A stretch of 28,978 nucleotides of DNA from a virus (IMGVR_UViG_3300020370_000023:1-28978); one strand, 5' to 3'; positions 1-17,786 are shown, counted from the stretch's first letter. Program-made: numbers and translations. The notes: generated by a model not told the origin, from the letters alone.

Positions 1-77
1 ATTACAGGTTTAAGTATAGTTACTTCTTAATCTTAATTAGTAGTTTTCATATATTTCTTGATTAGAGTGGTTTATGC
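1..77. repeat. Terminal overlap copy 1: nt 1-77 are identical to nt 28902-28978 (circular closure; unit length 28,901 nt)
   Basis: Read directly: ATTACAGGTTTAAGTATAGTTACTTCTTAATC...GAGTGGTTTATGC occurs at both ends. Nt 1-30 repeat the last 9 codons plus stop of the CDS ending at 28931. Confidence 0.95.
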
Positions 78-91
78 CACTCTTTTCTTTT
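64..91 (+). terminator. Rho-independent terminator downstream of the tube-like gene (across the circular junction)
   Basis: Perfect 7-bp stem AGAGTGG (64-70) / CCACTCT (77-83), 6-nt loop TTTATG, followed by TTTCTTTT. Confidence 0.7.
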
Positions 92-97
92 ATATAC

Positions 98-129
98 CAA
101 ATAAATAATGACTTTTTCTATTATATAAT
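98..129 (+). promoter_or_regulatory. Late promoter-like bipartite element, copy 1 (CAAATAAATA-N9-TCTATTATATAAT)
   Basis: CAAATAAATA at 98-107 and TCTATTATATAAT at 117-129. The ATG of the next gene is at 132. Spacing is identical to the copies at 25136 and 26594. Confidence 0.6.
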
Positions 130-131: not shown

Positions 132-611
132 ATGATACAAGCAATCACTGAAACTAACCTAACAACTTATTTACAGACTGAAGATAATCGTATAGACACT
201 TCAGTAGGATCAGACAAAATAAGGCACTTAGTTAAGTTCACTAATGACATGGATAAGTCAGTTCAGTATGCTTATTCAACAGTTCATTTAATTTATGATA
301 GATATACAAAGTTTGTATTTGATTATAATGCAACACCTGATGTTTATACTGGTAAAGTAAACTTTATACCGTCAGGATTTTGGAAATATGAAGTATATGA
401 AGTAAGTTGGACAGGTGCAGTAGCTATTAGTGCAGGAAACGCACCTATTAATGAGAATGATATATTGCCAGTAGGGCCTACTCATGGCGTAGTTCAAGGT
501 TTAATAACTAAAGGCAAAATGTATGTAGCAGATAAAGCAGGAACAGCACAAGTACAATATACACAAAGGCAAGAGCCTAGTGGAACTAATTATATATATT
601 ACGGACAATAA
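132..611 (+). CDS. Hypothetical protein, late (virion) module
   Basis: 159-aa ORF directly after promoter-like copy 1. Its composition looks like the other structural genes. No family recognised. Confidence 0.6.
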   Translation: MIQAITETNLTTYLQTEDNRIDTSVGSDKIRHLVKFTNDMDKSVQYAYSTVHLIYDRYTKFVFDYNATPDVYTGKVNFIPSGFWKYEVYEVSWTGAVAISAGNAPINENDILPVGPTHGVVQGLITKGKMYVADKAGTAQVQYTQRQEPSGTNYIYYGQ

Positions 612-621
612 AAAATAAAAA

Positions 622-897
622 ATGGCAATAGAAAATGTACAACAACTCTTAACAGAGCAATTAGGTAAAAACGGAGGTACTGAGATATTCACAACAGCAG
701 CCCAAACAAGCAAAGACTGGTATTGTGTTTACTTTCCTGTTGAAAGTGTAGTAGCTTCAATTACAGTAGCAGATGCAACTGGTGAAGCAGCTCTTCAAAC
801 GACTTTAGCAGCAGGAACAACTTTGTTTATGAATATAACCGCAATTACACTTACAAGTGGTATTGGAATAGGTTATCATGAAGGCGTTACAACATAA
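622..897 (+). CDS. Hypothetical protein, late module
   Basis: 91-aa ORF with an A-rich leader (AAAAATAAAAAATGG) and tight spacing to its neighbours. Confidence 0.55.
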   Translation: MAIENVQQLLTEQLGKNGGTEIFTTAAQTSKDWYCVYFPVESVVASITVADATGEAALQTTLAAGTTLFMNITAITLTSGIGIGYHEGVTT

Positions 898-900
898 GAC

Positions 901-1080
901 ATGCTATCACTTAAATTAGGCATAAGTTTAAATAACATCAAAGCAGGTGGAGGTGGAGGAGGAGACCCTATCTCATCTATGGTAGCTGATTTCCAGTCAA
1001 GAGTAACAACTGATGGCGGAACTAACGAGGGTAGCTCTTGTTTAACCACTATACTAACCGACTTAAATGATATATCATGA
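901..1080 (+). CDS. Small hypothetical protein (59 aa, contains a G6 glycine run)
   Basis: My own translation: MLSLKLGISLNNIKAGGGGGGDPISSMVADFQSRVTTDGGTNEGSSCLTTILTDLNDIS. It fills the gap exactly, and its stop overlaps the next ATG (ATGA at 1077-1080). It is below the ORF-track length cutoff. Confidence 0.45.
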   Translation: MLSLKLGISLNNIKAGGGGGGDPISSMVADFQSRVTTDGGTNEGSSCLTTILTDLNDIS

Positions 1081-2249
1081 CATTATTAGATGATTCTAAA
1101 ATAATTACTACTGCCAACTCTTTTAAAGCAGGAACTCTTTATAGTATTAAGCCTGATGACGCTAGTGCAGATTTTACTATAACTCGTTCTTCAACTGCTA
1201 CAAGGATAAACAGTTCTGGCAATATAGAGTCTGTTGCAATAAATGCACCACAAATTACTTATTCAGGTGGTTGTGCCTCTTTTTTAGTAGAACCACAAAG
1301 AACAAATTTACATCTATATAGTGAAGAACTTGACAATGCCGCCTATCAAAAAAGTGATGTAACAGTTAGTGCAAATGCAGTAACTTCTCCTGATGGAACT
1401 ACAAATGCTGATGAATGCGAAACAACAAGTAATGGCGCTCAATTATACCAACAAATTTCTTTAGCAGCGTCAACAACTTACACTTGGAGTTTTTATGCTA
1501 AAAAAGGTACTATGACAGATGTAGGTCAGCAGATTTATAATATGAATGGTGATGGAGAGTATGGAACTGGCGGTAAATATTACTCTCAAATTGGTGCTGA
1601 TTGGACAAGAATATCTTTTACTTTTACAACTGGTGTTAACGGTGGAAACACACGCTTTTATCCTATAAATGCTTCAGGAGTTACTGGGTCTATATATTTA
1701 TGGGGCTTTCAGATAGAACAGTATTCAGCAGACACTTCATATATTCCTACAACTAGCGGTTCAGTTACAAGAGTAAAAACAGTATGGGAAACAACAGGGC
1801 TTGGTTCCGTATTAAAACCAACAGAAGGAGTTTTAATGGCAGAGATAAGGTTTCCTCATGGAAGTACAGACATGGCTACAAACATTTTAAGTGTAAGTAG
1901 TGGTAATTTTACGAATATGGTAAACATAGGATATTGGGCTGGTTATTTTGCACAAGTAACTATGGGTGGCGCACACTTGATGTTTGCACTTGGAACTGGG
2001 CCTACTGTTGATACAAATTTTCATAAAATTGCTGTTAAATATAAAAGTGGTGATTGTGCTGTTTGGGTTGATGGAGTTGAAACAACCACTTCAACACTTA
2101 CTGGTGCACCTACTGGAACAAATATAAATATTATTTCAGGCTCTTATGGTAACAGTAGTGGATTTTGGCCTTTCTTTGGTGAAATAAAACAGTTAGTGTA
2201 CTTTGATAATATACTAACAGATTCTCAACTATTAGATTTAACTAATTAA
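1077..2249 (+). CDS. Tail fibre / receptor-binding-type protein with a LamG (concanavalin-A-like) domain
   Basis: The motif YLWGFQIEQ...SYIPTTSGSVTR is typical of phage fibre proteins carrying ConA-like/LamG domains. The C-terminal half (NIGYWAGYF...FHKIAVKYKSGDCAVWVDG...IKQLVYF) looks like a LamG beta-sandwich. Confidence 0.55.
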   Translation: MTLLDDSKIITTANSFKAGTLYSIKPDDASADFTITRSSTATRINSSGNIESVAINAPQITYSGGCASFLVEPQRTNLHLYSEELDNAAYQKSDVTVSANAVTSPDGTTNADECETTSNGAQLYQQISLAASTTYTWSFYAKKGTMTDVGQQIYNMNGDGEYGTGGKYYSQIGADWTRISFTFTTGVNGGNTRFYPINASGVTGSIYLWGFQIEQYSADTSYIPTTSGSVTRVKTVWETTGLGSVLKPTEGVLMAEIRFPHGSTDMATNILSVSSGNFTNMVNIGYWAGYFAQVTMGGAHLMFALGTGPTVDTNFHKIAVKYKSGDCAVWVDGVETTTSTLTGAPTGTNINIISGSYGNSSGFWPFFGEIKQLVYFDNILTDSQLLDLTN

Positions 2250-2250
2250 T

Positions 2251-2598
2251 ATGAATATATATAAACTACAATACGATAATAAAGCACAAGCTGATGCTGA
2301 CTTTTTAGACAAAGGAGTAACTCAAATAATAGAGGTTGAAGGTCAACAACACACAGCAAATACTAGCACAACTCAAGCAATAGTAGACTTAGGCAGAATA
2401 GTAGAAACACCTGGAACTTATGACCCTGATGGTCATGTAATTACACCGCCTGTTTATTATGATGGTGTATTTTACGATATAATGACTACTAAGCATATAG
2501 ACTTTGGAGCTCATGCTTTAACACCTACTAAATGCGTACATGGCTTTGCAGGTTACAGTATAGATGCAAATGGAGATAATGTAGAACCACAACAATAA
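2251..2598 (+). CDS. Hypothetical protein
   Basis: 115-aa ORF starting 1 nt after the preceding stop. No family recognised. Confidence 0.55.
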   Translation: MNIYKLQYDNKAQADADFLDKGVTQIIEVEGQQHTANTSTTQAIVDLGRIVETPGTYDPDGHVITPPVYYDGVFYDIMTTKHIDFGAHALTPTKCVHGFAGYSIDANGDNVEPQQ

Positions 2599-2600
2599 TT

Positions 2601-4622
2601 ATGAAAGATAACATCATTAATATTAATTTAGAAACAAGTACATCGCCGACTGTCGCTGAAGTAAGGGGTAAAGATTGGATCGAATACGGAACTGAAGATT
2701 GGAGAAACTTATATCCGCAGTTTATTATAGACTTATACTATTCAAGCTCAATAACTGCTGCAATCGTAAATGCAACTGCTGAAATGGTAGCAGGTGAGAA
2801 TTTAATCATAGAAGATGAAAAAGATAGAAATGAAGAGGCTAGAGTAAAGCTTGAAAACTTTATGAATAGAGCTAATGGTAATGAAAGCTTACATGAAGTA
2901 ATAAAGAAGTTAGCTTTTGATTTTAAACTTCAGGGTGCTTTTGCTCTTAACATAGTTTGGTCTAAAGATCGCACACAAATTGCAGAAATATACCATGTAG
3001 ATGTTTCTAAGGTTCGTTGTGCAAGACCTGATGAATTTGGCAAGACTAAAGGTTATTACATTTCTGCAGACTGGTCAAACACTAGACAAAACAAACCATA
3101 TTATGTTTCTTGCTTTAATGTTAATGATAGAACATCAGCTAATCAAATAATGTATTCAGGATTATATAGTCCTAATATGAACTCTTATTATACACCTGAC
3201 TGGGTGTCTTGCACAAATTGGAGTCTTATAGATTCTAGAATTAGCGAGTACCACTTAAACAACATAAGCTCAGGATTTTCAGGTTCTTTTATGATTAACT
3301 TCTCAAATGGCATACCAACACAGGAAGAGAGATTTCAGATAGAACAAAGTATAACGGAAAAATTCACATCACAAAATAATGCAGGGAAGTTTGTATTGAC
3401 TTTTTCAGATGACAAGACTAGAACACCTGAAGTTAATGCGATAAGTCCTGCTGATTTAGATAAGCAATATTTAGCACTTCAAGAATTACTAACTCAAAAC
3501 ATTTTATCAGGACACAGGGTAACTTCACCTATGCTAATGGGGATTAAGAACGACACAGGACTTGGCTCTAATGTAGATGAACTTAACTCAGCAGCAAACT
3601 TTTATCTTAATACAGTAGTTAAACCATTTCAAGATCAGATAGTAAAACAACTTAGAAAAATCTTTCAAGTTAATGATATGGATATGCCTGTAAACTTTGT
3701 ACAGCTTAAACCAATTACTTTAGAGTTTACAAGTGAAGATTTAAAAGGCATTTTAACTGAAGATGAATTGAGAGAAGAAATGGGATTGCCACCTTTAGAT
3801 GTAGAAATCAGAGAAGATTTTAGCAAAGTAGGAAATATAGATGGGAAGCCAGTATTTGACACAATAAAAGAAGCTGAGGCGCACGCAAAGACTTTAGGGT
3901 GCGAGGGGTACCATCCACACGAATACGAGGGCAGAACTGTTTACATGGCGTGTAAAGACCATTCTTCAGCAACAGAACTTGCAAAGTTTATTGAAGAATT
4001 TGGTGAAGATATACCTGAAGAGTGGGAATTAGTAGATGAAGAAAAAGTTGTAGATGAACACGCTGACTTTAATTTTGAAGAAGTTTTAAATGATGTAGCT
4101 AATGAAAAGATAGAATTAACTTCAACAGGTAGGGCTTTGCCTGGTAGAAAGTCAGATCAAGATGGTATATCTAAAAAAACTTATGACTATTTTAGAGTAA
4201 GATATGTATATGCTCAAGATAATTTTTTAGTAAATAAAACAGGACAAGAAAGACCATTTTGCAAACAAATGATGGGAGCTAAAAAACTTTACAGAAAAGA
4301 AGATATTGTAGCTATGTCAGGTAAAGTTGTAAACGACTATTACTATTCTAAAAACCAAAAAAGAAATATAGGTTGGGGACCTAAAGGTGCTTTAAAATAT
4401 GATATATTCAAATTTAAGGGGGGGGGTAACTGTGAACATTTTTGGCTCCGCCAGATTTGGAAAACAGAATTAGGAAAATCAAGAACAACTAAGATAGAAG
4501 ATGCTGATTTAATTGGATATACTAAAGCGGTTTCAGAAGGATTTAGACCTGAAAAGAATAGCCCATTAGTAGCAAAGCCACCAAAAAGAATGAAAAATAA
4601 AGGATTTTTAACACCAAGATAA
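2601..4622 (+). CDS. Portal protein fused to a C-terminal MuF/SPP1-gp7-like minor head domain
   Basis: The N-terminal ~400 aa have a portal-like layout, ending GHRVTSPMLMGI...VKPFQDQIVKQL. A Cys/His motif follows (LGCEGYHPHEYEGRTVYMACKDH). The C-terminus (RPFCKQMM...GWGPKG...FKGGGNCEHFW) resembles the conserved Cys/His end of head-morphogenesis (MuF-type) proteins. Confidence 0.75.
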   Translation: MKDNIININLETSTSPTVAEVRGKDWIEYGTEDWRNLYPQFIIDLYYSSSITAAIVNATAEMVAGENLIIEDEKDRNEEARVKLENFMNRANGNESLHEVIKKLAFDFKLQGAFALNIVWSKDRTQIAEIYHVDVSKVRCARPDEFGKTKGYYISADWSNTRQNKPYYVSCFNVNDRTSANQIMYSGLYSPNMNSYYTPDWVSCTNWSLIDSRISEYHLNNISSGFSGSFMINFSNGIPTQEERFQIEQSITEKFTSQNNAGKFVLTFSDDKTRTPEVNAISPADLDKQYLALQELLTQNILSGHRVTSPMLMGIKNDTGLGSNVDELNSAANFYLNTVVKPFQDQIVKQLRKIFQVNDMDMPVNFVQLKPITLEFTSEDLKGILTEDELREEMGLPPLDVEIREDFSKVGNIDGKPVFDTIKEAEAHAKTLGCEGYHPHEYEGRTVYMACKDHSSATELAKFIEEFGEDIPEEWELVDEEKVVDEHADFNFEEVLNDVANEKIELTSTGRALPGRKSDQDGISKKTYDYFRVRYVYAQDNFLVNKTGQERPFCKQMMGAKKLYRKEDIVAMSGKVVNDYYYSKNQKRNIGWGPKGALKYDIFKFKGGGNCEHFWLRQIWKTELGKSRTTKIEDADLIGYTKAVSEGFRPEKNSPLVAKPPKRMKNKGFLTPR

Positions 4623-4624
4623 TT

Positions 4625-5200
4625 ATGAGCTATGTACTTTTTATATCAGAACAGAAGTTAAAATCTTCGACTGCCGTAAACTTATCAGTTGATGTGAATT
4701 TGCTCTTGCCTTATGTAAGGCAGGCACAAAAGTTGTATGTTGAAACCAAACTAGGAACTGATCTTACACAAAAACTAAAAGACTTAATTACATTAGGTAC
4801 AATAGGTAATGTAGGTAATGAAGCATACAAAACTTTAGTAGATGATTATATTGGTGATATGCTACCAAACTGGGCGTTTTATCATGCAGTTCCTTTTTTA
4901 AGATTTAAAATTGAGAATGGAAATATTTATTCTAAGACTTCTGAAACAGGAAACGCCCTTAGCACAGAAGAAGCTCAGCATTTAAGAGAAGAGGTAAGAA
5001 ATACTGCTGAGTATTACACAGAGAGAATGATAGACTATGTTAGAAACAATACATCAAGCTTTCCTGAGTATTCAACTAATTCAGGTGCAGATGTAAGTCC
5101 TGACTCTAATGCCTACTATAATGGTATGAATCTTGAAAGACCAATGCAAAAAGGAACTAAATTAACTTTAAGAGATTTTCTAACTCCCGATTTAACTTAA
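4625..5200 (+). CDS. Hypothetical protein; possible head-tail adaptor
   Basis: 191-aa ORF directly after the portal gene. It looks helical, with a gp6-like connector feel. The functional call rests on position only. Confidence 0.5.
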   Translation: MSYVLFISEQKLKSSTAVNLSVDVNLLLPYVRQAQKLYVETKLGTDLTQKLKDLITLGTIGNVGNEAYKTLVDDYIGDMLPNWAFYHAVPFLRFKIENGNIYSKTSETGNALSTEEAQHLREEVRNTAEYYTERMIDYVRNNTSSFPEYSTNSGADVSPDSNAYYNGMNLERPMQKGTKLTLRDFLTPDLT

Positions 5201-5260
5201 TGAAGAAATATTACAAGCCAAAAATAAAAAATATAAATAAACTTAAAACATACTTAAAAG

Positions 5261-5431
5261 ATGCCACTGAAGCAGATAACAAAAGAAGTAGGAGAAGTGT
5301 TAGGAGTAAACAGCGTAATATTAAGCGTAACGACATTCACTAACCTAGAACTATTTTTAAAAATAATACTGTTATTAGTTACAATAGTTTATACTGTTGA
5401 CAAGTGGTGGTATCATAAAAAGAAAAGATAA
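5261..5431 (+). CDS. Small membrane protein (56 aa), candidate holin/lysis accessory
   Basis: My own translation: MPLKQITKEVGEVLGVNSVILSVTTFTNLELFLKIILLLVTIVYTVDKWWYHKKKR. It has one clear TM segment and a basic C-tail, and sits just upstream of the DUF5675 gene. It is below the track cutoff. Confidence 0.45.
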   Translation: MPLKQITKEVGEVLGVNSVILSVTTFTNLELFLKIILLLVTIVYTVDKWWYHKKKR

Positions 5432-5488
5432 TGCCTAAGAAACGCAAATTAAATAGCAATAATCCAAAGTATAACAAAGCAATAAAAA

Positions 5489-5974
5489 GTGAAATTAAAA
5501 TGCGTAAAGAATTTGTTAAAGAAGTTAAAGGGTGTAAAATTTATAAGTCCTACTATCTCTAAAAACTCCAACATAAACCTTTTAATTCTCAGAGATACTT
5601 TTAGTGATGAAAGTACAATAGGAGAGTTATTTCTTAATGGAGAAAGATTTTGTGATACATTAGAACTACCTTATAAAGATAATCAAAGAAGTATATCTTG
5701 CATACCAGTAGGCGAATACAAAGTACGATTAAGATACCCAAGAGAAAGTGCTACTAGAAATTACTTGCACTTGCTTGTAGAAGATGTAAAAGACCGCTCT
5801 CATATTTTAATACACCGCGGAAATAAGCCCTCGCATACCCAGGGCTGCATATTAGTTGGGATGACAAGTCAACAAGACTTTGTTGGTAACTCTACTTTAG
5901 CTATGGATTTACTTATAAAAGAAATAATAAATTTGGGTGGCACTAATATTAATTTAATAATCAAAAATAAATAA
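5489..5974 (+). CDS. DUF5675-family protein, candidate cell-wall hydrolase (endolysin)
   Basis: LLILRDTFSDESTIGELFLNGERFCDTLE...IPVGEYKV...ILIHRGNKPSHTQGCILVG matches the DUF5675 pattern (TxGxL...TLE...IPxGxY...HxGN...GCIL). The conserved domain begins near 5575 and has no ATG nearby, so the GTG at 5489 is only a provisional start. Confidence 0.65.
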   Translation: MKLKCVKNLLKKLKGVKFISPTISKNSNINLLILRDTFSDESTIGELFLNGERFCDTLELPYKDNQRSISCIPVGEYKVRLRYPRESATRNYLHLLVEDVKDRSHILIHRGNKPSHTQGCILVGMTSQQDFVGNSTLAMDLLIKEIINLGGTNINLIIKNK

Positions 5975-5976
5975 TT

Positions 5977-6171
5977 ATGAAAGAATGGATTTTAGTACAA
6001 ACTTTAAAAAAGGCAATTTCAAGTCGTAAATTTCTATATACTGCAATTGGCTGTATAGCGACTTTACTTAGCGACCATTTAGGTTTAAATGCTGATGAGG
6101 TTAAAAACATACTATTTAGTATAGCAGCACTTGTCTTAGGTCAAGGTATTGCAGATGGATCAAAAAAGTAA
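5977..6171 (+). CDS. Two-TM small membrane protein, holin-like
   Basis: 64 aa with hydrophobic segments FLYTAIGCIATLL and ILFSIAALVLGQGI and a charged end DGSKK. It lies immediately after the DUF5675 gene. Confidence 0.55.
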   Translation: MKEWILVQTLKKAISSRKFLYTAIGCIATLLSDHLGLNADEVKNILFSIAALVLGQGIADGSKK

Positions 6172-6883
6172 TAATAGATTTAGATTAAAGCCGCATGAAA
6201 TAGCGGCATTAAAAAAGATGCGAGAAGCTGACACTAGGAATATCCTAGTTGTTGGCGACTTGCATGAACCATTTTGCCTAGATGGTTATTTAGAGTTTTG
6301 TATAGAGCAGTACGAGGCCTATAATTGTAATCATGTTATAATGATTGGCGATTGCGTTGATTCGCATGGATTTTCATACCATGAGCCTGACCCAAATGGA
6401 TTATCAGCAGGTAATGAGCTTGAATTAGCAATTAAAAAAATAGAAAAATGGCATAAAGCATTTCCTAATGCTGATGTATGTATAGGTAATCATGATAGAA
6501 TGGCAGCTAGAAAAGCAATGACTGGCGGTATTCCTGCTCAATGGATAAAGTCTTACAACGAAGTTTTAGGAACCCCAACATGGAACTGGGTTGAGTCAGT
6601 AGTGTATGATGATGTCCTTTACGAACATGGAGAAGGGGGGCAAGCTCAATCAAAAGCAAAGAATAACCTAATGTCAAGTGTTTGCGGTCATACTCATACT
6701 GAAGCATACTGTAAGTGGTTTGTAGGAAAAAGATACAGAATCTTTGGTATGCAAGTAGGTTGCGGTGTAGATGCTTCAACTTATGCTGCTGCTTACGCTA
6801 AAAACTTTAAAAAACAAGCCATAGGCTGCTCAGTAGTATTAAACAATGGTACACTACCAATAAATCTTTTAATGCCCTTATAA
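6149..6883 (+). CDS. Calcineurin-like metallophosphoesterase
   Basis: The family motifs occur in the expected order: VVGDLHEPF, MIGDCVDS, GNHD, GHTH. Confidence 0.8.
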   Translation: MQMDQKSNNRFRLKPHEIAALKKMREADTRNILVVGDLHEPFCLDGYLEFCIEQYEAYNCNHVIMIGDCVDSHGFSYHEPDPNGLSAGNELELAIKKIEKWHKAFPNADVCIGNHDRMAARKAMTGGIPAQWIKSYNEVLGTPTWNWVESVVYDDVLYEHGEGGQAQSKAKNNLMSSVCGHTHTEAYCKWFVGKRYRIFGMQVGCGVDASTYAAAYAKNFKKQAIGCSVVLNNGTLPINLLMPL

Positions 6884-7071: not shown

Positions 7072-7326
7072 ATGTACTCAAATTTTAAAATGTTAGAAGC
7101 AACAAACAAAGAAGAAGCTATTGTATCAATATTAGATGTAATAGAAGAAAATCCATTATGGCTTAATAAAATTAATGATGGCTTATTTTTATTGGTAAAA
7201 AGTATTGAACCTGAACACAAAAGATTTTTATTAGAAAGGTCATTAGATGAACAAGTAATAGACTTGTTTGTTAAACTAAAAAAAGAATACTATCACTTTA
7301 AAGATTTTACACAATGGAATTACTAA
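7072..7326 (+). CDS. Hypothetical early protein
   Basis: 84-aa ORF, the first gene after the early promoter. Confidence 0.55.
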   Translation: MYSNFKMLEATNKEEAIVSILDVIEENPLWLNKINDGLFLLVKSIEPEHKRFLLERSLDEQVIDLFVKLKKEYYHFKDFTQWNY

Positions 7327-7688
7327 TTTGCGAAGATTACTACTTCTATAATAACGGAGTGTATAAAACAATAGAAAAACTATCACCTGAAGGTTGGTTT
7401 ACAGATTTAAAAAAAGTAGAACCAAGTATTAGAATCTTTGGAACTAGAGAGCAGGTAGATGAAGCTCTTGATACTTATATTGAATTGACTGGTCTTAATC
7501 TTGATGAATCATTTGAATATAAAACAGAAGAGAAAGGCAGCTACTGGGAAGATATTGTATTTAGTGAAACAAGAAAAGACAGACCTACACTAAAAGAATA
7601 CAATAAAGCTGTAAATAAGAATCTAGCAATATACAGAGAGAAATATAATAAACTAAATAATAACAAAGCATTAATAACAACGATATGA
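7314..7688 (+). CDS. Hypothetical early protein
   Basis: 124-aa ORF that overlaps both neighbours, suggesting translational coupling. Confidence 0.55.
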   Translation: MELLICEDYYFYNNGVYKTIEKLSPEGWFTDLKKVEPSIRIFGTREQVDEALDTYIELTGLNLDESFEYKTEEKGSYWEDIVFSETRKDRPTLKEYNKAVNKNLAIYREKYNKLNNNKALITTI

Positions 7689-8068
7689 AAACAGAACTAA
7701 TTAAAGAAAAATATAATAAATATGGATTAACTCCTGATGATATTTTTAAACACCAACACTATATAATTATAACAAGATCAGGAATTGATAAAATTCAAGC
7801 AATAGAAAATATTAGAATTAAATATGAATCTATTAAGTGTGAACCTAATTTTGCAGCAGTTAAAGCTACAGCAATAAAAGATGAACTTATTATTGAAACA
7901 TTTGGTTCAGCTTTAAAAGGAGATTTCAAAAATGGAAATTGCAATACTTTTTATGTATTAGAAATGTCTGAGAAAAGAGCTATGTCAAGAGCAGTATTAA
8001 AATTAACTGGATTTTATGAGCTTGGTGTATTTGGAGAAGATGAAAGTGAAGATTTTAAAAGAAAATAG
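7685..8068 (+). CDS. Hypothetical early protein (weak resemblance to recombination/annealing proteins)
   Basis: 127 aa. The segment YVLEMSEKRAMSRAVLKLTG...GEDE is reminiscent of conserved ends of phage single-strand-annealing proteins. This is too weak to support a name. Confidence 0.5.
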   Translation: MKTELIKEKYNKYGLTPDDIFKHQHYIIITRSGIDKIQAIENIRIKYESIKCEPNFAAVKATAIKDELIIETFGSALKGDFKNGNCNTFYVLEMSEKRAMSRAVLKLTGFYELGVFGEDESEDFKRK

Positions 8069-8071
8069 TAT

Positions 8072-8144
8072 GAGGGGGTTTGGTATCAATATAAATAATA
8101 ATGTCAGCAGTTATACTTTGTAAAGATATACGCCCCCTCTTTTT
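8072..8144 (+). terminator. GC-clamped long-loop hairpin plus T-run (probable terminator of the first early operon)
   Basis: GAGGGGG (8072-8078) pairs with CCCCCTC (8133-8139) across 54 nt and is followed by TTTTT (8140-8144). It begins 4 nt after the stop at 8068. Confidence 0.45.
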
Positions 8145-8163
8145 AATAATTAAAAATTAAATT

Positions 8164-8334
8164 ATGGAAACCGCAATACCTAATAACAGTATAAACAAAC
8201 CTTTAAGTGAAAGTGAGCAGCTTAGAACTGAAAACACAAGACTAAGGAAAAACAATTTAAATTTAAAATTGCAAATAATTAAAGAAAAAGAAAAAATATT
8301 AAAAATAATTAAGTACATTAAAAGTTACAAATAA
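8164..8334 (+). CDS. Small coiled-coil protein (56 aa)
   Basis: My own translation: METAIPNNSINKPLSESEQLRTENTRLRKNNLNLKLQIIKEKEKILKIIKYIKSYK. It has a heptad-like Leu/Ile pattern and fills an otherwise empty gap. It is below the track cutoff. Confidence 0.4.
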   Translation: METAIPNNSINKPLSESEQLRTENTRLRKNNLNLKLQIIKEKEKILKIIKYIKSYK

Positions 8335-8365
8335 AACCTAGTATTAATAAATTAAATAAATAAAA

Positions 8366-8692
8366 ATGGAAGTAAAAGGAAAATTAGTTAAGATGCTTAA
8401 ACTTGAAACAGGTGTAAGTAAATCAGGAAAAGAATGGAAAAAACAAACAGTTGTAGTAGACAATGGAGAAGAGTTTAATAACCTAATAGCAATAAGTGCT
8501 TTTGGTGAAGATAAAATTAAAGACTTAAATAAACTACAAGAAGGAATGACAGTATCTATTCTTTGTAATGTTTATTCTAGAGAGTATAAAGGTAAATATT
8601 ATCACAATATAGATGGATATTGGTTTACACAAAAAGCTGAAAATGAGGACTTTGTAACTTCAGACTCAAATGAGAATGATTTGCCGTTTTAA
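8366..8692 (+). CDS. DUF3127 OB-fold-like protein with an SSB-type acidic tail (candidate ssDNA-binding protein)
   Basis: MEVKGKLVKMLKLETGVSKSGKEWKKQTVVV...SREYKGKYYHNIDGYW fits the DUF3127 pattern. The C-terminal extension ENEDFVTSDSNENDLPF mimics the bacterial SSB tip (DDDIPF). Confidence 0.65.
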   Translation: MEVKGKLVKMLKLETGVSKSGKEWKKQTVVVDNGEEFNNLIAISAFGEDKIKDLNKLQEGMTVSILCNVYSREYKGKYYHNIDGYWFTQKAENEDFVTSDSNENDLPF

Positions 8693-8693
8693 A

Positions 8694-9203
8694 ATGATAC
8701 AAGAAGATAATTTTAAAAACTTATGTGACCTTACTACAAGATTAGTAGGGCTGCGTAAAGGTTCGCTTGCCTTCAAAAGCAGAAAACAAGAATACCAAGT
8801 ACCAAGAAGTGTTGTAGCAGTTGTTGCTAGGATGATAGATAATACACACCCAACTATAATAGCTAAACAGCTTAAAAGAGATAGGGTTTCTGTTTATCAT
8901 TATGAAAGAATGCACGAATCTAATTATCGATCTTTTCCTAAATATAGAGAGATTTTTAATTTAGTCTATAATGCATATTCTAGTATTCAGGGTTCTAAAA
9001 GAACATTTTCAGACTCTAGGGAGTTAGAAATATACTTAAGAGAAAGCGGAATAAGTAACAGTGATAAATACCAAACTATTATTAAAGTTACTTCAGGAAG
9101 AGCTGAATATAATATTAGACTCTCATATAAAGATTTTTACAATCAATTAGAATTATGTAAGTTTGCCCTGACAGATTGTAATTACAACTTAGAAATTATT
9201 TAA
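8694..9203 (+). CDS. DNA-binding protein with a DnaA-C-terminal-like HTH
   Basis: QVPRSVVAVVARMIDNTHPTIIAKQLKRDRVSVYHYERM resembles DnaA domain IV (R..aRqiamyl...IG..f.rdHsTV). I chose the ATG at 8694 rather than the track start at 8670 because it avoids overlap with the upstream stop at 8692. Confidence 0.45.
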   Translation: MIQEDNFKNLCDLTTRLVGLRKGSLAFKSRKQEYQVPRSVVAVVARMIDNTHPTIIAKQLKRDRVSVYHYERMHESNYRSFPKYREIFNLVYNAYSSIQGSKRTFSDSRELEIYLRESGISNSDKYQTIIKVTSGRAEYNIRLSYKDFYNQLELCKFALTDCNYNLEII

Positions 9204-9823
9204 TGGAAAAACCAAACTACTATGCTATAATACCTGCTGAAGTAAGGTACTCAAGTTTAAAACCTAATGCTAAACTTCTTTATGGAGAAATAACTGCATT
9301 AAGTGGAAAACTTGGGTACTGTTATGCAACTAACAACTATTTTGCAGAACTATATGGAGTTAGTAAAAACACAGTTAGCAGGTGGCTTAGCGAATTAAAT
9401 AAATTAGGATTTATAAATATAGAAGTAGAACGCAACGAAAATAAACAAGTGATTAAAAGAAAGGTAGGTATTGTTAAAAAAGACAATAGCCCTATATATA
9501 AAATAAGCAAAGAGAATAATACAAGTATTAATAATACAAGTAATATAAATATAACTAAAGAAAAATTTATTTCAGAGGTTATGACTTTTGATTATCCTAA
9601 AGATATGTTAGAGGATTTTGTAAACTACTGGACAGAGGGTAAAAAGAAAATGAGATACCAAAAACAAAGCACTTTTGAAATAAAATTAAGATTGTTGCGT
9701 TGGAATAAAAATAATAAGTCCTGGAATAAACCTCAAACAATGAGTAAGATACATCAACACTTACAGAAAAACATAAATGTAAAAGAAAAGTTATTAAAAC
9801 AATTAAAAAATGAAAACAATTAA
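9203..9823 (+). CDS. HTH replication-initiation / replisome-organiser-type protein
   Basis: The N-terminus YYAIIPAEVRYSSLKPNAKLLYGEITALSGKLGYCYATNNYFAELYGVSKNTVSRWLSELNKLGFI is the typical HTH_36/DnaD-like phage replication-protein signature. Confidence 0.65.
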   Translation: MEKPNYYAIIPAEVRYSSLKPNAKLLYGEITALSGKLGYCYATNNYFAELYGVSKNTVSRWLSELNKLGFINIEVERNENKQVIKRKVGIVKKDNSPIYKISKENNTSINNTSNINITKEKFISEVMTFDYPKDMLEDFVNYWTEGKKKMRYQKQSTFEIKLRLLRWNKNNKSWNKPQTMSKIHQHLQKNINVKEKLLKQLKNENN

Positions 9824-10178
9824 AACAATGTCAAAAGAAGATTTACTAATGTTGTCAGTAGATTTAGTAAGTAAAACCTATATTGAATTAGGACAAAACA
9901 ATGTAGAAGAAGATACAATAACAATAATGGCTAAAAGTTTAGCTAATGATTTAGCAAGAATTTATAAAAACTTTTATTTTGAAGACGCTGAAAATGCTTT
10001 TCATTTAGGAGTAAGAAGTCCTATGACATCTGACTTTATACATTTAACAGTTCCTACTTATATGAAATGGTTGCGAAAACATCAAGATATAATATGGGAT
10101 GCAAGAGCAAGAGTTGATAAAGGAGAGAATCCTAATCAAGTACCTCATTACAGACCTGAACCAAAACTACTCAAATGA
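9810..10178 (+). CDS. Hypothetical protein
   Basis: 122-aa ORF overlapping the upstream gene by 14 nt. Confidence 0.55.
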   Translation: MKTIKTMSKEDLLMLSVDLVSKTYIELGQNNVEEDTITIMAKSLANDLARIYKNFYFEDAENAFHLGVRSPMTSDFIHLTVPTYMKWLRKHQDIIWDARARVDKGENPNQVPHYRPEPKLLK

Positions 10179-10233
10179 TAGGTTAAGTAATAATCGCAGC
10201 AATAGTGCTGCATATAAACTATAAATTAAAAGA

Positions 10234-10452
10234 ATGAAAACACTTACACAAAAAGAAAGAATTATTAGACATTTAAAAGACAAAGGATCAATTACATCAT
10301 TAGAGGCTATGAGAGAGTATGGCATAATGCGTTTAACATCAAGAGTTTGTGAATTAAAAAACGAGGGCTATTTGATTAGAAGTGAGTTTGTTAGCAGTAA
10401 AAATAGATACAATGAGCCTGTATCTTTTAGTAAATATTCACTAATAAGTTAA
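10234..10452 (+). CDS. Winged-helix DNA-binding protein (HTH_39-like)
   Basis: ERIIRHLKDKGSITSLEAMREYGIMRLTSRVCELKNEGYLI matches the small phage wHTH family pattern (L..G.iT..eA...lgi.RLaaRI.eLr..Gy.I). Confidence 0.6.
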   Translation: MKTLTQKERIIRHLKDKGSITSLEAMREYGIMRLTSRVCELKNEGYLIRSEFVSSKNRYNEPVSFSKYSLIS

Positions 10453-10453
10453 A

Positions 10454-10861
10454 TTGAAGTCAATAAGTAAACTTAAAAAAGAACTAGATAAGTGGTTTAG
10501 TCTTTACATTAGACTAAGAGATAGTCAAAATGGATTAGTACAATGCTTTACTTGTGGTAAAGTTGCACACTATAAAAAAGGCGGTATGCAATGCGGACAC
10601 TTTCAGTCTAGGCGGTTTATGGCAACTAGATATGATGAACAAAACTGTTCAGCTCAATGTGTTGCTTGTAATATGTTCAGAGCAGGAGAGCAATACAGGT
10701 TTGCATTAGCTATTGATGCTAAGTATGGTGATGGCACTGCTGATGAACTGCAATTTAAAGCTAGACAAACAATGAAGTTCACTAGAGCTGATTATGAAGA
10801 AAAAATAAGTTATTACAAGTCAGTTGTTAAAAAATTAAAAAAAGAAAAGGGAATAGAATAA
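10454..10861 (+). CDS. ninG: NinG/Rap-like recombination endonuclease
   Basis: WFSLYIRLRD...CFTCGK...QCGHFQSRRFMATRYDEQNCSAQCVACN...GEQYRF parallels lambda NinG (FIRERD..C.SCG...aGH...lRf.e.N.h.QC..CN). It uses a TTG start 2 nt after the preceding stop. Confidence 0.7.
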   Translation: MKSISKLKKELDKWFSLYIRLRDSQNGLVQCFTCGKVAHYKKGGMQCGHFQSRRFMATRYDEQNCSAQCVACNMFRAGEQYRFALAIDAKYGDGTADELQFKARQTMKFTRADYEEKISYYKSVVKKLKKEKGIE

Positions 10862-10882
10862 TTTTTTTTATAACTTTGAAAA

Positions 10883-11239
10883 ATGCACATTCCTATTTAT
10901 TCAAGTGAAGAACACAAATCAATAGTAGATGTTTATGTTTTAATGTGCAAACAATTTGTAGAAGAAGTAACAACAAAAGCAAGATACAAAAATTATTTAG
11001 AGGTGTTAGACTTAGTTATAGAATATTCTAACAACTATGGCAAAGGAGTTAGAGAAAACAATTTTTATGACTGGATTACTATTATACCAATAAATGTATC
11101 TGTTGCCACTAGCGGATTTTTTGCAGGAGTAGAAACTAAAACTAACTCAGCAGTTATAAGAGCTTATAAGGTTGTATTAGACCAAATGCTGCAAGAGGTT
11201 ATTGATAGAATAGATAAACTAGAACCTACTCATGACTGA
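10883..11239 (+). CDS. Hypothetical protein, translationally coupled to the sigma-like gene
   Basis: 118-aa ORF overlapping the next gene by 8 nt. Confidence 0.55.
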   Translation: MHIPIYSSEEHKSIVDVYVLMCKQFVEEVTTKARYKNYLEVLDLVIEYSNNYGKGVRENNFYDWITIIPINVSVATSGFFAGVETKTNSAVIRAYKVVLDQMLQEVIDRIDKLEPTHD

Positions 11240-11813
11240 TATTTATATTGAAATATCAAAGCTAACAGACAAGTTCAGAACAATGGCTTATGGAATAACA
11301 ACAGATGAAAATAAAATAAATGAAGCAGTACAGGAATTGATGCTTTATTTTTTACAGATGAATCCTGAAACGCTTAGGAATATTTATGAAAAAGATGGAA
11401 TAGATGGAATAACAAGATACGGGGCTGTTGCATTAAGAAGAGCATTAACAAGCACAAGAAGTAATTTTTATTATAAATATGAAAAGTATTATACACATAT
11501 TGATGGTTCTGTTTTTAGTTCTAATACAACTGACACTAATGAGTATATTATTCCTGATGGTTTTAATTATAAAGATATTTCAAATATTCCAAACGAAGAA
11601 GTAGATAACCATAAGATAATGAAATTAGAAGCAATAGATAAAGAGTTAGACAAGCTAGAAAGTTGGTACGATAGAAAACTTTTTCAGTTATATTATAGCG
11701 GTGAGACACTTGACAGTTTAGCAGCTAAGACTAAAATAAGTCGTAACAGTCTTTTTACAACAATAGATAAAGTAAGAACAATAATTAAAAAGAAATTAAA
11801 TGAAGATTTATGA
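11232..11813 (+). CDS. Sigma-70-family-like transcription factor (region 2 and region 4 features)
   Basis: Region-2-like: NEAVQELMLYFLQMNPETL...RYGAVALRRALTSTRSNF. Region-4-like HTH: YDRKLFQLYYSGETLDSLAAKTKISRNSLFTTIDKVRTIIKKKL. Confidence 0.55.
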   Translation: MTDIYIEISKLTDKFRTMAYGITTDENKINEAVQELMLYFLQMNPETLRNIYEKDGIDGITRYGAVALRRALTSTRSNFYYKYEKYYTHIDGSVFSSNTTDTNEYIIPDGFNYKDISNIPNEEVDNHKIMKLEAIDKELDKLESWYDRKLFQLYYSGETLDSLAAKTKISRNSLFTTIDKVRTIIKKKLNEDL

Positions 11814-11914
11814 TCCTGTAAAAAAAGATAGTTTTGTAATGCAGTTTGGTTTTAAAAGTCCAAACTGGCATCCAAGAACTAAAAATACTTATATAAAAAA
11901 AGAAGATAGAAAAA

Positions 11915-12316
11915 GTGAATAGATTTTTTGTTTCTGATGAAGTCTATCAAGACAGGATAGCAATATGTAAAGAATGTGTTTACTATTTTAAACCAACAGG
12001 AACTTGTAAGCGTTGTTTATGTTTTATGAAAGTAAAGGCAAGACTAGCACCAATGGCGTGTCCTCAGAAGTATTGGGATAAAACAACAGAAGTACAAACA
12101 CCTGATGACTTGCCACAAGAGATAATAGATGAAATATTAGATATGTGGAAAGACTTAAAAACAGGAAGAGCAAAAGATGTTCAAGCTAAAAAAAGAATGA
12201 TAGAGACCTACAACACTATACATATGACTTCTTATTCGCCTACTACAAATTGCGGTTCGTGTATATCAACTTGTTTTGATGCAATTAAAAAACTATATAA
12301 AAAATACAGCGAATGA
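11915..12316 (+). CDS. Cys-rich (zinc-binding-type) hypothetical protein
   Basis: CKEC...C..CLC...ACP near the N-terminus and CGSC..C near the C-terminus. It has a GTG start. Confidence 0.5.
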   Translation: MNRFFVSDEVYQDRIAICKECVYYFKPTGTCKRCLCFMKVKARLAPMACPQKYWDKTTEVQTPDDLPQEIIDEILDMWKDLKTGRAKDVQAKKRMIETYNTIHMTSYSPTTNCGSCISTCFDAIKKLYKKYSE

Positions 12317-12495
12317 TAAGAAATACAAAAGAAATACTAGACTATTACTTTAAAAACCCTAGCAAAAACAGTAACAAAGAGATGGCAGAAAGATTTAATA
12401 TTTGTACAATTACTTTTAGTAGAATACTGTCTAAGGAATTAAAAAGAAGAAGAGAAAACAGTATGGTTAGAAGATTTATTAATAAAAATGTTTGA
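12313..12495 (+). CDS. Small basic protein, possible HTH
   Basis: 60 aa. NKEMAERFNICTITFSRIL resembles a short HTH. Its start overlaps the upstream stop (ATGA). Confidence 0.45.
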   Translation: MIRNTKEILDYYFKNPSKNSNKEMAERFNICTITFSRILSKELKRRRENSMVRRFINKNV

Positions 12496-12610
12496 AACAC
12501 TAAGACATATTATAGGTATTTGTGGAGAACCACATCCAAGTTTAATTACTTTATTACTTGGAACACCTATTGCTAGTTATTTAATATATAAAATAAAAAA
12601 TAAAAAATGA
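12488..12610 (+). CDS. Small membrane peptide (40 aa)
   Basis: My own translation: MFETLRHIIGICGEPHPSLITLLLGTPIASYLIYKIKNKK. It overlaps both neighbours by 8 and 4 nt and fills the 12496-12606 gap. Confidence 0.4.
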   Translation: MFETLRHIIGICGEPHPSLITLLLGTPIASYLIYKIKNKK

Positions 12611-12864
12611 AACAAGATTATAAAAGAACGCCTGAGCCAAGTTATTATTTAGGAACATTGTATGGTTATTCAGCCAAAGACATAGTTGATGATTTTAACT
12701 TAAACGCATGGACTGCTCAAGCAGTACAGTATATACTAAGAGCAGGAAAAAAAGATGGTAGTCCTGCTGAACAAGATATACAAAAAGCAATTAATGTTTT
12801 GCATTTTGAGTTAGAAAAACTTTATGAAAAAAGTAAAACTAGAACAGGAGGACTAGCAAAATGA
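12607..12864 (+). CDS. DUF3310-family protein
   Basis: PSYY...DIVDDFNLNAWTAQAVQYILRAGKK...DIQKAINVL follows the DUF3310 pattern (P.yY...i..i......f..gnaiKYl.Rag.K...dl.KA..yl). Confidence 0.65.
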   Translation: MKQDYKRTPEPSYYLGTLYGYSAKDIVDDFNLNAWTAQAVQYILRAGKKDGSPAEQDIQKAINVLHFELEKLYEKSKTRTGGLAK

Positions 12865-13118
12865 CACTATATTATTGTAAATGTTGTAAAGAAGAAAAAG
12901 AAGTAAACAAAGCTAAAATAGTTTACAGAGATAGTAAATGGGTTGCAGATGTTATTTGTAGTTGTGGCAAATATATGGATAGCGAACCTGAAGATGGTAT
13001 GCCAAACCTTAAAAGAACTGAAGCGTCTTTAAGTAAAAAGATAAGGCATGATAAACTATGGGCTGGTGCTAAAGAAAAATTAATAGGAGAACGAGGTATT
13101 AACGAAAAATTTAACTAA
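12861..13118 (+). CDS. Zinc-ribbon-like small protein
   Basis: A CKCC...CSCG pair of Cys dyads in an 85-aa ORF. One of the few AGGAGG-like sequences in the window lies 8 nt upstream. Confidence 0.5.
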   Translation: MTLYYCKCCKEEKEVNKAKIVYRDSKWVADVICSCGKYMDSEPEDGMPNLKRTEASLSKKIRHDKLWAGAKEKLIGERGINEKFN

Positions 13119-13624
13119 TGAAATTATTATACTTATTATTATACATGCAAACACAAATGTCAGTTAACTGGTGTGACTCAATATCATATTCAGTAATAGA
13201 AAACTCAAATGGTGTTTTTAGCGTGACGATTGAAACAACAGACTCTTTAGATAATTATTGTGACACAGTTGATGTTTATTGGGGGGTTTGTAATAGTGAT
13301 TTTTGTTTTAGTGGTATTGGTGCATTTGCATCGTTTCCAATAATACAACTTACAGATACAGTAAAAGTATGTTACAATGCTTACATAATGAATCCGCAAG
13401 GAGCAGGTACTACAATAATACCTTGCACTAACCAGTGTGATACTGTTGTATTTAATGGGCTAGAGTGGGTTCAATTTCCAATAACAAATAGTGTTGGTGT
13501 AAATGAAATACCACTAAGATTAAATAAAAAAATATATAACCTGCAAGGCATAAAACTTTTTAAAGAGCCTAAAAATAAGATTTATATTAAGAATAGAAAG
13601 CTGCATTATGAACTTCGTGATTAA
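13118..13624 (+). CDS. Cys-rich putative secreted protein with a T9SS C-terminal-domain-like tail
   Basis: It has a hydrophobic N-terminus (MKLLYLLLYMQ) and about 11 Cys. The C-terminus VGVNEIPLRLNKKIYNLQGIKLFKEPKNKIYIKNRKL resembles Bacteroidota Por/T9SS sorting domains (tGI.ei....vY.LqG..v..p..GiYI.nGkK). Confidence 0.4.
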   Translation: MKLLYLLLYMQTQMSVNWCDSISYSVIENSNGVFSVTIETTDSLDNYCDTVDVYWGVCNSDFCFSGIGAFASFPIIQLTDTVKVCYNAYIMNPQGAGTTIIPCTNQCDTVVFNGLEWVQFPITNSVGVNEIPLRLNKKIYNLQGIKLFKEPKNKIYIKNRKLHYELRD

Positions 13625-13991
13625 TACAAGTCAAGACAAACAGAATCTTTTTAATTACTTAAAAGAGCTTAATAGTGATTACATAGTTAAAGTAAAAAAG
13701 CAAAGAAACAACAGAAGCAATATGCAGAATAACTATTACTGGGCTTGTATAGTACAACCATTAGGAGAATCACTTGGATATTTTCCTGATGAAATGCACG
13801 ATACTTTAAAGGTCAAGTTTGCAAGTGAATGGCAAAGCATAGATATAAACGATAAACAGATAGGACTGCAAACAGTTAATAGTACAGCAAGAATGAATAC
13901 AAAAGAGTTTGAAGTTTATGCAGAACAAATAAGGATTTGGGCTTTAACAGAACTAGGTATAAGACTAATGCTACCAAATGAATATCAATAA
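13608..13991 (+). CDS. ninB: NinB/Orf-like recombination mediator
   Basis: VKVKKQRNNRSNMQNNYYWACI and STARMNTKEFEVYAEQIRIWALTELGI parallel lambda NinB (VVTIQERNRSLDQNRKLWACL and STSRMRVGEFAELLELIQAFGTERGV). Confidence 0.65.
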   Translation: MNFVINTSQDKQNLFNYLKELNSDYIVKVKKQRNNRSNMQNNYYWACIVQPLGESLGYFPDEMHDTLKVKFASEWQSIDINDKQIGLQTVNSTARMNTKEFEVYAEQIRIWALTELGIRLMLPNEYQ

Positions 13992-14761: not shown

Positions 14762-14776
14762 TTTCTATTATATAGT
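14745..14776 (+). promoter_or_regulatory. Late promoter-like bipartite element, copy 2 (degenerate)
   Basis: AAAACAAATT (14745-14754), N9, then TCTATTATATAGT (14764-14776). It lies upstream of the terminase genes. Confidence 0.45.
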
Positions 14777-17719: not shown

Positions 17720-17786
17720 TGAAATTTAAGATAGGAAAATATACAATAGAAATAGGATTTTTTAAAATAACAATAAAATTATAAAC

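Follow-up and report, generated by a model that had tools for sequence, protein, structure and literature searches.

A bipartite element at the heads of late operons in a marine Flavobacteriia phage: probable late promoters for a divergent phage sigma factor, with predicted transcription starts at or near the start codon

Phage-encoded sigma factors are known to drive middle and late genes, as does the extracytoplasmic function (ECF)-like gp36 of phiEco32 and, more broadly, SPO1 gp28 and gp33/34, and T4 gp55. Sevostyanova and colleagues are said to have found, in 2007, leaderless middle and late transcripts in the Thermus phage phiYS40. In Deinococcus-Thermus, a -10 element adjoining the open reading frame (ORF) gives leaderless mRNA (PMC12340547), and in Bacteroidota only ∼5.5% of mRNAs are leaderless (PMC9723704). 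In the same phylum, 87% of predicted leaders exceed 10 nt (PMC6847099). In Flavobacterium johnsoniae, the -7 box of the primary sigma factor sigma-A, TAnnTTTG (T-12, A-11, T-8, T-7, T-6 and G-5 nearly invariant), spans T-12 to G-5 and stands 4 to 5 nt from the transcription start site (TSS) (PMC6847099). Here we describe a bipartite element in the viral genome IMGVR_UViG_3300020370_000023:1-28978 (28,978 nt, analyzed at its full length and called the window below), copies of which head its late operons. From the sequence evidence presented here, we consider it highly probable that the five copies are late promoters, and probable that they are read by the sigma-like product of ORF 11232-11813, with transcription starting at or next to the position 13 nt downstream of the core's first T (core+13). 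Full-text searches of the literature found no description of such promoters in Bacteroidota phages.

The element has the consensus [C/A]AA[A/C]TAAAT(A/T)-N9-TCTATTATAT and is present in exactly five copies, all on the coding strand at gene boundaries of the late region:

Positions 98-129, plus strand: site 1, upstream half 98-107 (CAAATAAATA), 9-nt spacer, core 117-129 (TCTATTATATAAT); heads the block 132-6883 (tail protein and portal), which lies beyond the circular junction; predicted TSS A130, ATG 132, 2-nt leader
Positions 14745-14776, plus strand: site 2, upstream half AAAACAAATT, 9-nt spacer, core 14764-14776 (TCTATTATATAGT); at the early/late boundary, before the small-terminase-like ORF (ATG 14806, end 15075) and then the large terminase; predicted TSS A14777, 29-nt leader
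Positions 16375-16406, plus strand: site 3, upstream half AAACTAAATT, 9-nt spacer, core 16394-16406 (TCTATTATATAAT); heads the structural genes 16409-25131 (PHROG/Pfam assignments); predicted TSS G16407, ATG 16409, 2-nt leader
Positions 25136-25167, plus strand: site 4, upstream half CAAATAAATA, 9-nt spacer, core from 25155 (TCTATTATATAAT), abutting ATG 25168; heads gene 25168-25653 and the prohead-protease-like gene 25663-26589; predicted TSS 25168, the A of the ATG, leaderless
Positions 26594-26625, plus strand: site 5, upstream half CAAATAAATA, 9-nt spacer, core from 26613 (TCTATTATATTAA); heads gene 26636-27331 and the capsid-like gene 27354-28286; predicted TSS A26626, ATG 26636, 10-nt leader

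The original prediction, made by a model from the sequence of the window, had named five copies, and all of them were found in these places. It had noted a common 10-mer and 9-nt spacing in the copies at 98, 25136 and 26594, which we confirmed, and it had described the copies as intergenic or, in one case, touching only the 3' end of the upstream gene. This too is accurate: the upstream half of site 2 overlaps the last 17 nt of the methyltransferase gene (stop codon 14759-14761), and the other sites are fully intergenic. A matrix scan of both strands saw no site in the early block (7072-14761), from which the motif had been said to be missing.

The exact 10-mer core TCTATTATAT occurs six times in the window, five times on the plus strand and once on the minus strand (within a gene, at 18732), against 0.39 ± 0.63 occurrences per dinucleotide shuffle, and none of 100 shuffles reached six. 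With a 35-nt matrix built from the five sites, these score 33 to 41 bits and the runner-up on either strand 8.2 bits; chance or AT-rich composition as the origin of the motif is ruled out by the shuffles and by this gap. Because the matrix was made from the sites it scores, the independent evidence comes from the shuffle test and from related genomes. The best minus-strand match (window 268-302, CAAATACAAACTTTGTATATCTATCATAAAT, inside ORF 132-611), which scores 8.2 bits with the five-site matrix and 12.5 bits with the family matrix, is probably due to chance.

The related set consisted of 160 uncultured marine loci from IMG/VR (1.73 Mb), anchored on the capsid-like protein (73-95% identity) and on ORF 11232 (71-98% identity). 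The original prediction had proposed a matrix scan of both strands of this genome and its relatives, and the scan placed the sites at late gene boundaries and on the coding strand only: at a threshold of 14 bits, a 40-nt matrix detects 254 sites on the coding strand of the 160 loci and 0 on the opposite strand. The exact core, counted in 80 capsid-anchored loci, occurs 147 times on the coding strand versus 13 on the other. It had also been foreseen that a motif equally frequent inside coding regions would speak against a promoter; none of 251 evaluable sites lies inside a gene (defined as a reading frame open for 150 nt on both sides), versus 48.5% of random positions. In loci anchored on ORF 11232, all sites are downstream, with none within up to 10 kb upstream. 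A scan of IMG/VR for the exact bipartite pattern returned at least 119 stretches and, among the matches listed, nearly all were on contigs of up to ∼30 kb. In hundreds of metagenomic genomes, the motif precisely marks late operons and the true starts of genes.

Two further occurrences were noted. A 176-kb viral contig (IMGVR_UViG_3300028734_000012), much longer than the ∼29-kb genomes of the family, has one exact bipartite match (L267, 5701-5728), which may be fortuitous or belong to a different phage that employs this signal. In L098 (2324), L105 (11975) and ten further loci, a gene with a ParB-like domain (MKQQVKISKVKGNPNNPR...) is preceded by an extra copy of the motif, ∼1.8 kb downstream of the start of the sigma gene, and its ATG is at core+13; the window has neither this gene nor this site.

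When 133 unique instances were anchored on the core, the upstream half was kept at exactly 9 nt, with C at -19 in 123/133 and three A positions at 128 to 133 of the 133, giving an overall pattern of CAAATAAA(T)A, and the nine spacer positions carried 0 to 0.4 bits each. Two blocks at a fixed distance with an unconserved spacer between them are a feature of sigma-dependent promoters. In the relatives, the upstream half reads CAAATAAATA at sites 1, 4 and 5 and AAACTAAAT at site 3. At site 2, where it falls inside the coding end of the methyltransferase gene, it reads CAAATGAAT, mostly as CCAAATGAAT or CAAACGAAT, which is nearer to the consensus than the copy in the window. The reverse strand offered no better reading; the reverse complement ends in TATTTATTTG, which does not constitute a TAnnTTTG box, and the genes and 254/254 strong sites are all on the plus strand.

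We sorted the sites into classes by the protein encoded downstream and recorded the position of the ATG. It lies at core+13 in 33/34 instances of the site 4 class and at core+15 in 21/25 of the site 3 class; among 41 unique instances of the site 1 class, it is found at core+13 (22), +15 (5) or +16 (8). It is more distant in the site 5 (scaffold/capsid) class, at core+23 to +40 (leaders of 10 to 27 nt), and in the site 2 (terminase) class, at core+40 to +42. Two observations identify the ATG that abuts the motif as a genuine start codon: nucleotide variability turns codon-periodic exactly at this ATG (mean entropy 0.40, 0.27 and 1.0 at codon positions 1, 2 and 3 in the site 4 class), and conserved N-termini run from it (MPCxxC in the site 4 class, MIQAI.., and MKVKIKK in the site 3 class). 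For the gene after site 2, the original prediction had given 14782/14806 as the start. The orthologous ATGs at 40 to 42 nt from the core start uphold ATG 14806 and not TTG 14782, so that this small-terminase-like gene (MDKRINNGGARKG...) most likely begins at 14806.

Where the ATG is elsewhere, core+13 is a purine in 119/127 unique instances, and it is A in 29/29 instances of the site 5 class, which would look like a preferred initiating nucleotide. Taking core+13 as +1, the invariant block covers -13 to -4 (C at -12) and the upstream half -32 to -23. The leaderless late mRNAs put forward in the original prediction, which had correctly measured 5 to 7 nt from the internal TATTAT to the ATGs at 132, 16409 and 25168, are supported by this geometry in part: of the five sites in the window, site 4 alone would yield a strictly leaderless mRNA, and the predicted leaders measure 2 nt at sites 1 and 3, 10 nt at site 5 and 29 nt at site 2.

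The same sequences can be read in a shifted register, with ATAAATA of the upstream half as the -10 element and a TSS towards the end of the spacer. The invariant core TCTATTATATAAT would then form a 13- to 16-nt leader that acts in translation, for example as an AU-rich, S1-dependent enhancer in an organism that lacks Shine-Dalgarno sequences. ATAAATA fits 7/8 positions of the T4 late consensus (TATAAATA), and in three classes the core is immediately 5' of the ATG with A favored at -3. However, an intact core is found 23 to 42 nt before the ATG in the terminase and scaffold classes and is therefore not tied to ribosome positioning, and the positions just before the core are mixed T/A while core+13 is 94 to 100% purine. 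The sigma-4-like domain of the phage factor implies a -35 element, no gp55-like late sigma or sliding-clamp loader appeared among the PHROG hits, and the core of Nonlabens phage P12024S, a cultured relative described below, carries CGT at -12 to -10. We regard the shifted register as improbable.

The first and last 77 bases of the window are an identical direct repeat (1-77 and 28902-28978), and we therefore take it to be a circularly assembled, complete phage genome of ∼28.9 kb (32% G+C), so that site 1 comes after the terminator of the last gene (28344-28931). The credible genes all lie on the plus strand, and no Shine-Dalgarno sequence was found at any of them. PHROG and Pfam scans identified an early/replication block at 7072-14761 (SSB, replication initiator, NinG, NinB and DNA methyltransferase), and all genes outside it are late. 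The features that concern initiation and termination around the late blocks and the sigma operon are as follows:

Positions 64-95, plus strand: intrinsic terminator with the stem AGAGTGG..CCACTCT (64-83) and a T-run, its end 2 nt short of site 1
Positions 6988 (TAACTTTG) and 7038 (TATCTTTG), plus strand: host-type -7 boxes in the 188-nt gap that opens the early block, by pattern match only
Positions 10871-10878, plus strand: host-type -7 box TAACTTTG, followed by 4 nt and then ATG 10883 of the sigma operon
Positions 10883-11239, plus strand: 118-aa ORF that overlaps the sigma gene, in the same operon
Positions 11232-11813, plus strand: 193-aa ORF for a divergent group 4 (ECF-like) sigma, proposed to read the motif

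In 41/41 unique orthologs of site 1, a hairpin of -8 kcal/mol or below (median -14) is followed by a T-run ending 10 to 16 nt before the motif, and the stems show compensatory changes across relatives. With a terminator in this place, the 6.7-kb block of essential genes, the portal and a tail protein gene among them, needs re-initiation within ∼35 nt, and the motif fills that space. Host-type TAnnTTTG boxes are found in the early region at 6988, 7038, 10871 and 11829, and no other intergenic box of this type was detected in the ∼21 kb of late genes. A host-type box at 16379 (TAAATTTG), which lies inside site 3, is not kept in the relatives and was treated as chance. The phage-specific late promoter class suggested by the original prediction is thus well supported by syntenic conservation in hundreds of related genomes, exclusively on the coding strand, at gene boundaries and downstream of the sigma gene, and further by the position of site 1 directly after a conserved, covarying terminator and by a late region that has no other host-type box. 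The statement that the motif differs from the TAnnTTTG promoter at 7038 is also correct, as none of the five late cores contains the TTTG that marks the Bacteroidota sigma-A -7 box.

The terminator also bears on a role in RNA, which the original prediction had offered as its alternative. The motif might be a processing site or a RegA-like translational operator on polycistronic late transcripts that come from other promoters; like translational operators, it overlaps or abuts start codons in three classes, and sites 4 and 5 sit in short gaps (36 and 46 nt) without an upstream terminator. Site 1, however, follows a strong conserved terminator by 2 nt, so that transcripts from upstream would seldom reach it, the 21 kb of late genes showed no further candidate for a late promoter, and a bipartite, unstructured element with an unconserved spacer of fixed length better fits recognition of duplex DNA. 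The sites matched no Rfam family and had no shared RNA fold (z-scores -1.2 to +1.7), and we rejected a known RNA family or common RNA structure in these regions; action at the RNA level is highly improbable.

Stoperators of mycobacteriophages L5 and Bxb1 are asymmetric, intergenic repressor operators in one orientation that block elongation during lysogeny; such arrays belong to temperate phages with a repressor and an integrase and have many sites across the genome. The sites described here are likewise asymmetric, in one orientation relative to transcription and restricted to gene boundaries. Against such a function, there was no integrase or repressor among the PHROG/Pfam hits, only five sites exist, each exactly at the head of an operon, and their distance to the ATG is fixed with a conserved purine at core+13, which makes stoperators exceedingly improbable.

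The sigma operon provides an internal calibration of the geometry. Its arrangement of box, 4 nt and ATG is kept in 70/76 relatives, and with the 4 to 5 nt spacing of F. johnsoniae the A of ATG 10883 becomes the predicted start of transcription. The operon is accordingly predicted, from its sequence, to be sigma-A-driven and leaderless, that is, the phage appears to put a start codon on the predicted TSS with a promoter whose spacing is experimentally known.

The original prediction had called 11232-11813 a sigma-like gene, and remote homology and fold agree on this, with scores below curated cut-offs. The best NCBIfam family was TIGR02937 (sigma70-ECF; 19.8 bits and E 4.7e-4 for the window protein, 26 to 39 bits for relatives). 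An exhaustive HMMER search collected 33 members of the wider family, nine of which match Sigma70_r4_2 and four Sigma70_r2. The family profile matches Protein Data Bank (PDB) chain 9n9q_C ('RpoE') across both domains (E 4.4e-6) and, weakly, SigH and SigW. The AlphaFold model (pLDDT 64) has two helical domains joined by a disordered linker, and essentially all of its top ∼46 Foldseek matches in the PDB are sigma factors, the best being M. tuberculosis sigma-L (E 2.5e-3, probability 1.0). These results support the assignment as a divergent ECF-like sigma without formal family membership. No cultured phage with a homolog detectable by BLAST was found, and phage P12024S was reached through its capsid and then by hhalign.

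A different phage factor could read the late promoters, if host sigma-A were redirected by an activator or appropriator such as the product of ORF 12313-12495 or ORF 10883-11239 and the ECF-like protein had another role. The 60-aa ORF 12313-12495, just downstream of the sigma gene, has a helix-turn-helix (HTH)-like sequence (MAERFNICTITFSRILSKEL) and is possibly an additional transcription regulator; it reads as a small HTH protein, and in all cases ORF 10883 and the sigma gene are transcribed together. This rival is also favored by the sub-threshold scores of the sigma assignment and by the positions of the AT-rich blocks of the motif (about -28 and -17), which agree with those of F. johnsoniae sigma-A promoters, centered at -28 and -18 (PMC6847099). 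On the other side, the motif has no TTTG of the sigma-A -7 box, and a two-domain sigma homolog is encoded by every relative examined and by P12024S, whose sites resemble classical ECF promoters. We consider an activator of sigma-A unlikely. We also asked whether ORF 10883 is a VRR-NUC protein like P12024S gp32, and rejected this for lack of any similarity.

Natural variation provides a lead on the reader. The exact core persists where the sigma is only 52 to 67% identical to that of the window. In a sub-clade of eight loci (L171, L193, L198, L207, L213, L228, L231 and L241), every site has TATATTATAT and not TCTATTATAT, and the sigmas of these loci carry L68I, T73Q, R76N and K180N, at positions that are invariant among sigmas paired with the C-containing core down to 51% mutual identity. 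Such a concerted change at several sites is what would be expected of one trans-acting reader, and since it was probably a single event we take it as a lead and not as proof; T73, R76 and K180 are candidates for specificity residues on the basis of this co-variation. In L237, the single site seen (upstream of ATG 13348) has TCTATAATAT. For the sigma clades at the greatest distance (L162-L166), de novo 10-mer counting gave noisy results only, and a related pattern, TTATAyTTATAAtaa|ATG, is suggested by the upstream regions.

P12024S (genus Inhavirus) is a cultured, distant relative with a gene order like that of the window. Its gp33, annotated as Sigma70_r2, is homologous to the window sigma family (hhalign 92% probability, E 6.6e-7), and there are five coding-strand sites, unannotated in its record, before the late genes gp01, gp05, gp08, gp41 and gp44:

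P12024S (L161) positions 134-181, coding strand: late site
P12024S positions 2986-3033, coding strand: late site
P12024S positions 5367-5414, coding strand: late site
P12024S positions 23916-23963, coding strand: late site
P12024S positions 25156-25203, coding strand: late site

These sites read AAAACAAA-N10-TTCCGTTAATATAnn flush with the ATG, the core half also being written TT(C/T)CGTTA(A/C)TA(T/A)Ann. With the A of the ATG as +1, AAC lies at -32 to -30 and CGT at -12 to -10 (AAC-N17-CGT; C-12 G-11 T-10), the AAC and CGT signature of ECF promoters. When the two phage groups are aligned from the ATG, they have TT.C...T.ATATAA.|ATG in common. P12024S thus resembles the window in its five bipartite coding-strand late sites, an A-rich, C-containing upstream half, a core ending in ATATAnn|ATG and a homologous sigma. 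It differs in its core (TTCCGTTAATAT, with CGT where the window has TAT), in a spacing ∼2 nt longer and in an ATG at a fixed distance in 5/5 sites. By analogy, the P12024S sites may be regarded as an independent replicate of the predicted phage-sigma late promoters that abut the ATG.

Our proposal for the order of events is as follows. Host RNA polymerase with the host primary sigma would first transcribe the early block from TAnnTTTG promoters, including the operon 10883-11813. The phage sigma would then bring the host core polymerase to the late sites, with the sigma-4 domain reading [C/A]AA[A/C]TAAAT at about -32 to -23, the sigma-2 domain reading TCTATTATAT at -13 to -4, and initiation at the conserved purine of core+13. 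The start codon coincides with this purine or lies 1 to 3 nt beyond it in three of the five gene classes, so that those late mRNAs would be leaderless or nearly so, and the terminase and scaffold/capsid units would get leaders of 10 to 29 nt.

Several observations weigh against this proposal. ORF 11232-11813 itself has no Pfam match, all TIGR02937 scores are under the 42.9-bit cut-off, and the Foldseek matches, with E-values no better than 1e-3 to 1, have low TM-scores. The sigma substitutions are linked to the change from C to A in the core through one probably monophyletic clade, and the link so counts as one event. The ECF signature of AAC and CGT is absent from the window family, which has CAAAT.. 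and TCTAT, with AAC only in the site 2 and site 3 variants, and if the upstream halves are aligned with those of P12024S the -35 to -10 spacing of the window is ∼2 nt shorter. Conservation at core+10 to +12 could partly be translation context (A at -3). The core also ends in TATAAT, which resembles a -10 box, and the argument hangs on choosing the register C-12 to T-6; we rejected TATAAT as the -10 box, as it would place the TSS downstream of genuine start codons, within the gene.

Other polymerase systems were also considered. No ORF of the window gave a PHROG or Pfam hit to an RNA polymerase, as a T7-like single-subunit system would require, and the 901-aa ORF 20177-22882, tried as a phage RNA polymerase, found no support; it lies in the tail module with only a PHROG match of unknown function and no Pfam hit. 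Nor does the locus resemble the T4 late system, in which a gp55-like sigma acts with gp33 and a sliding clamp on a lone TATAAATA -10 box, as the element is bipartite and the PHROG hits include no gp55-, gp33- or clamp-like family.

The only nucleotide match of the window to a cultured phage is 137 bp in a Tenacibaculum phage, and its capsid-like protein is 28% identical to the capsid of Nonlabens (Persicivirga) phage P12024S. Uncultured marine genomes that cluster with the Persicivirga phages have been described as putative Flavobacteriaceae phages ('group 1' of Nishimura et al., PMC5332604). The window phage belongs to this Persicivirga-grouped set and is most likely a lytic phage of marine Flavobacteriia.

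Some features of the window lie apart from the late sites. The large-terminase frame (15050-15185) encodes KLNLNKKYQALFNSDARYFIITGGRGSGKS (Walker A) 5' of its first ATG (15182) and offers no ATG, GTG or TTG between that point and the in-frame stop before it; this also holds for 26/36 unique variants of the relatives, in which codon 2 past the stop is kept as CTG. Initiation at CTG is one suggestion, and coupling or frameshifting from the upstream small-terminase-like ORF another. Potential hairpins are found at three other places:

Positions 8069-8163: long-range inverted repeat GAGGGGG...CCCCCTC followed by TTTTT, with ∼54 nt enclosed, between two early genes; could be a terminator or regulatory hairpin
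Positions 16269-16316: GC-rich stem GCCCCCCAC...GTGAGGGGC with a 31-nt loop and no T-run, 3' of the large terminase and ∼60 nt before site 3
Positions 28298-28324, plus strand: terminator-like hairpin AGGGGGCGTAAAAACCCCCT with T7 after the capsid-like gene, read from the window sequence only

Taken together, the sites offer a concrete map of gene control for an abundant family of uncultured ocean phages, leading from early host-type promoters to a phage sigma and five predicted late promoters. The motif is an aid to annotation, settling starts such as 14806, and the system suggests an orthogonal sigma/promoter pair for use in Bacteroidota, a phylum with few genetic tools; the analogous sites of P12024S, which grows on Nonlabens, are usable experimentally. 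If the leaderless prediction is true, these phages would be a natural system for leaderless translation in bacteria that do not use Shine-Dalgarno sequences, and the design could favor 70S-type initiation on a 5'-AUG late in infection. More broadly, and we hold this view tentatively, the family may systematically set promoters flush against start codons, both host-type sigma-A promoters and its own late ones, which would leave many key mRNAs leaderless and may reflect a dedicated translation strategy and a new specificity class for a divergent ECF-like sigma.

In comparison with phiEco32, SPO1 and T4, the system proposed here likewise has an early phage sigma that would redirect the host core polymerase to a later-gene consensus in a temporal cascade, and its sigma has two domains and an ECF size (193 aa). 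It differs in having a Bacteroidota host, with an unusual primary sigma and no Shine-Dalgarno use, in a consensus, CAAATAAATA-N9-TCTATTATAT, that has no AAC/CGT, and in a promoter that abuts the start codon, and the sigma dependence is here a prediction. As in Deinococcus-Thermus, a -10-like block ends a few nt before the ATG and the predicted TSS is at the start codon, but there the host primary sigma uses a generic TANNNT box genome-wide, whereas the window has a phage-specific bipartite element. The promoters of the Bacteroidota primary sigma (-7 TAnnTTTG and a weak -33 TTTG) resemble the late motif in a block that starts at -12/-13 and in AT-rich elements one and two turns upstream, and the phage itself uses genuine Bacteroidota-type promoters for its early genes and sigma operon; unlike these, the late motif is without TTTG and carries a C both at -12 (invariant) and at -32 (specific). 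Phage sigmas with a late consensus of their own are a classical theme, and flush -10 elements with leaderless mRNAs are known in Deinococcus-Thermus; what is particular here is the combination of predicted phage-sigma late promoters with abutment to the start codon, in a phylum poor in leaderless mRNAs.

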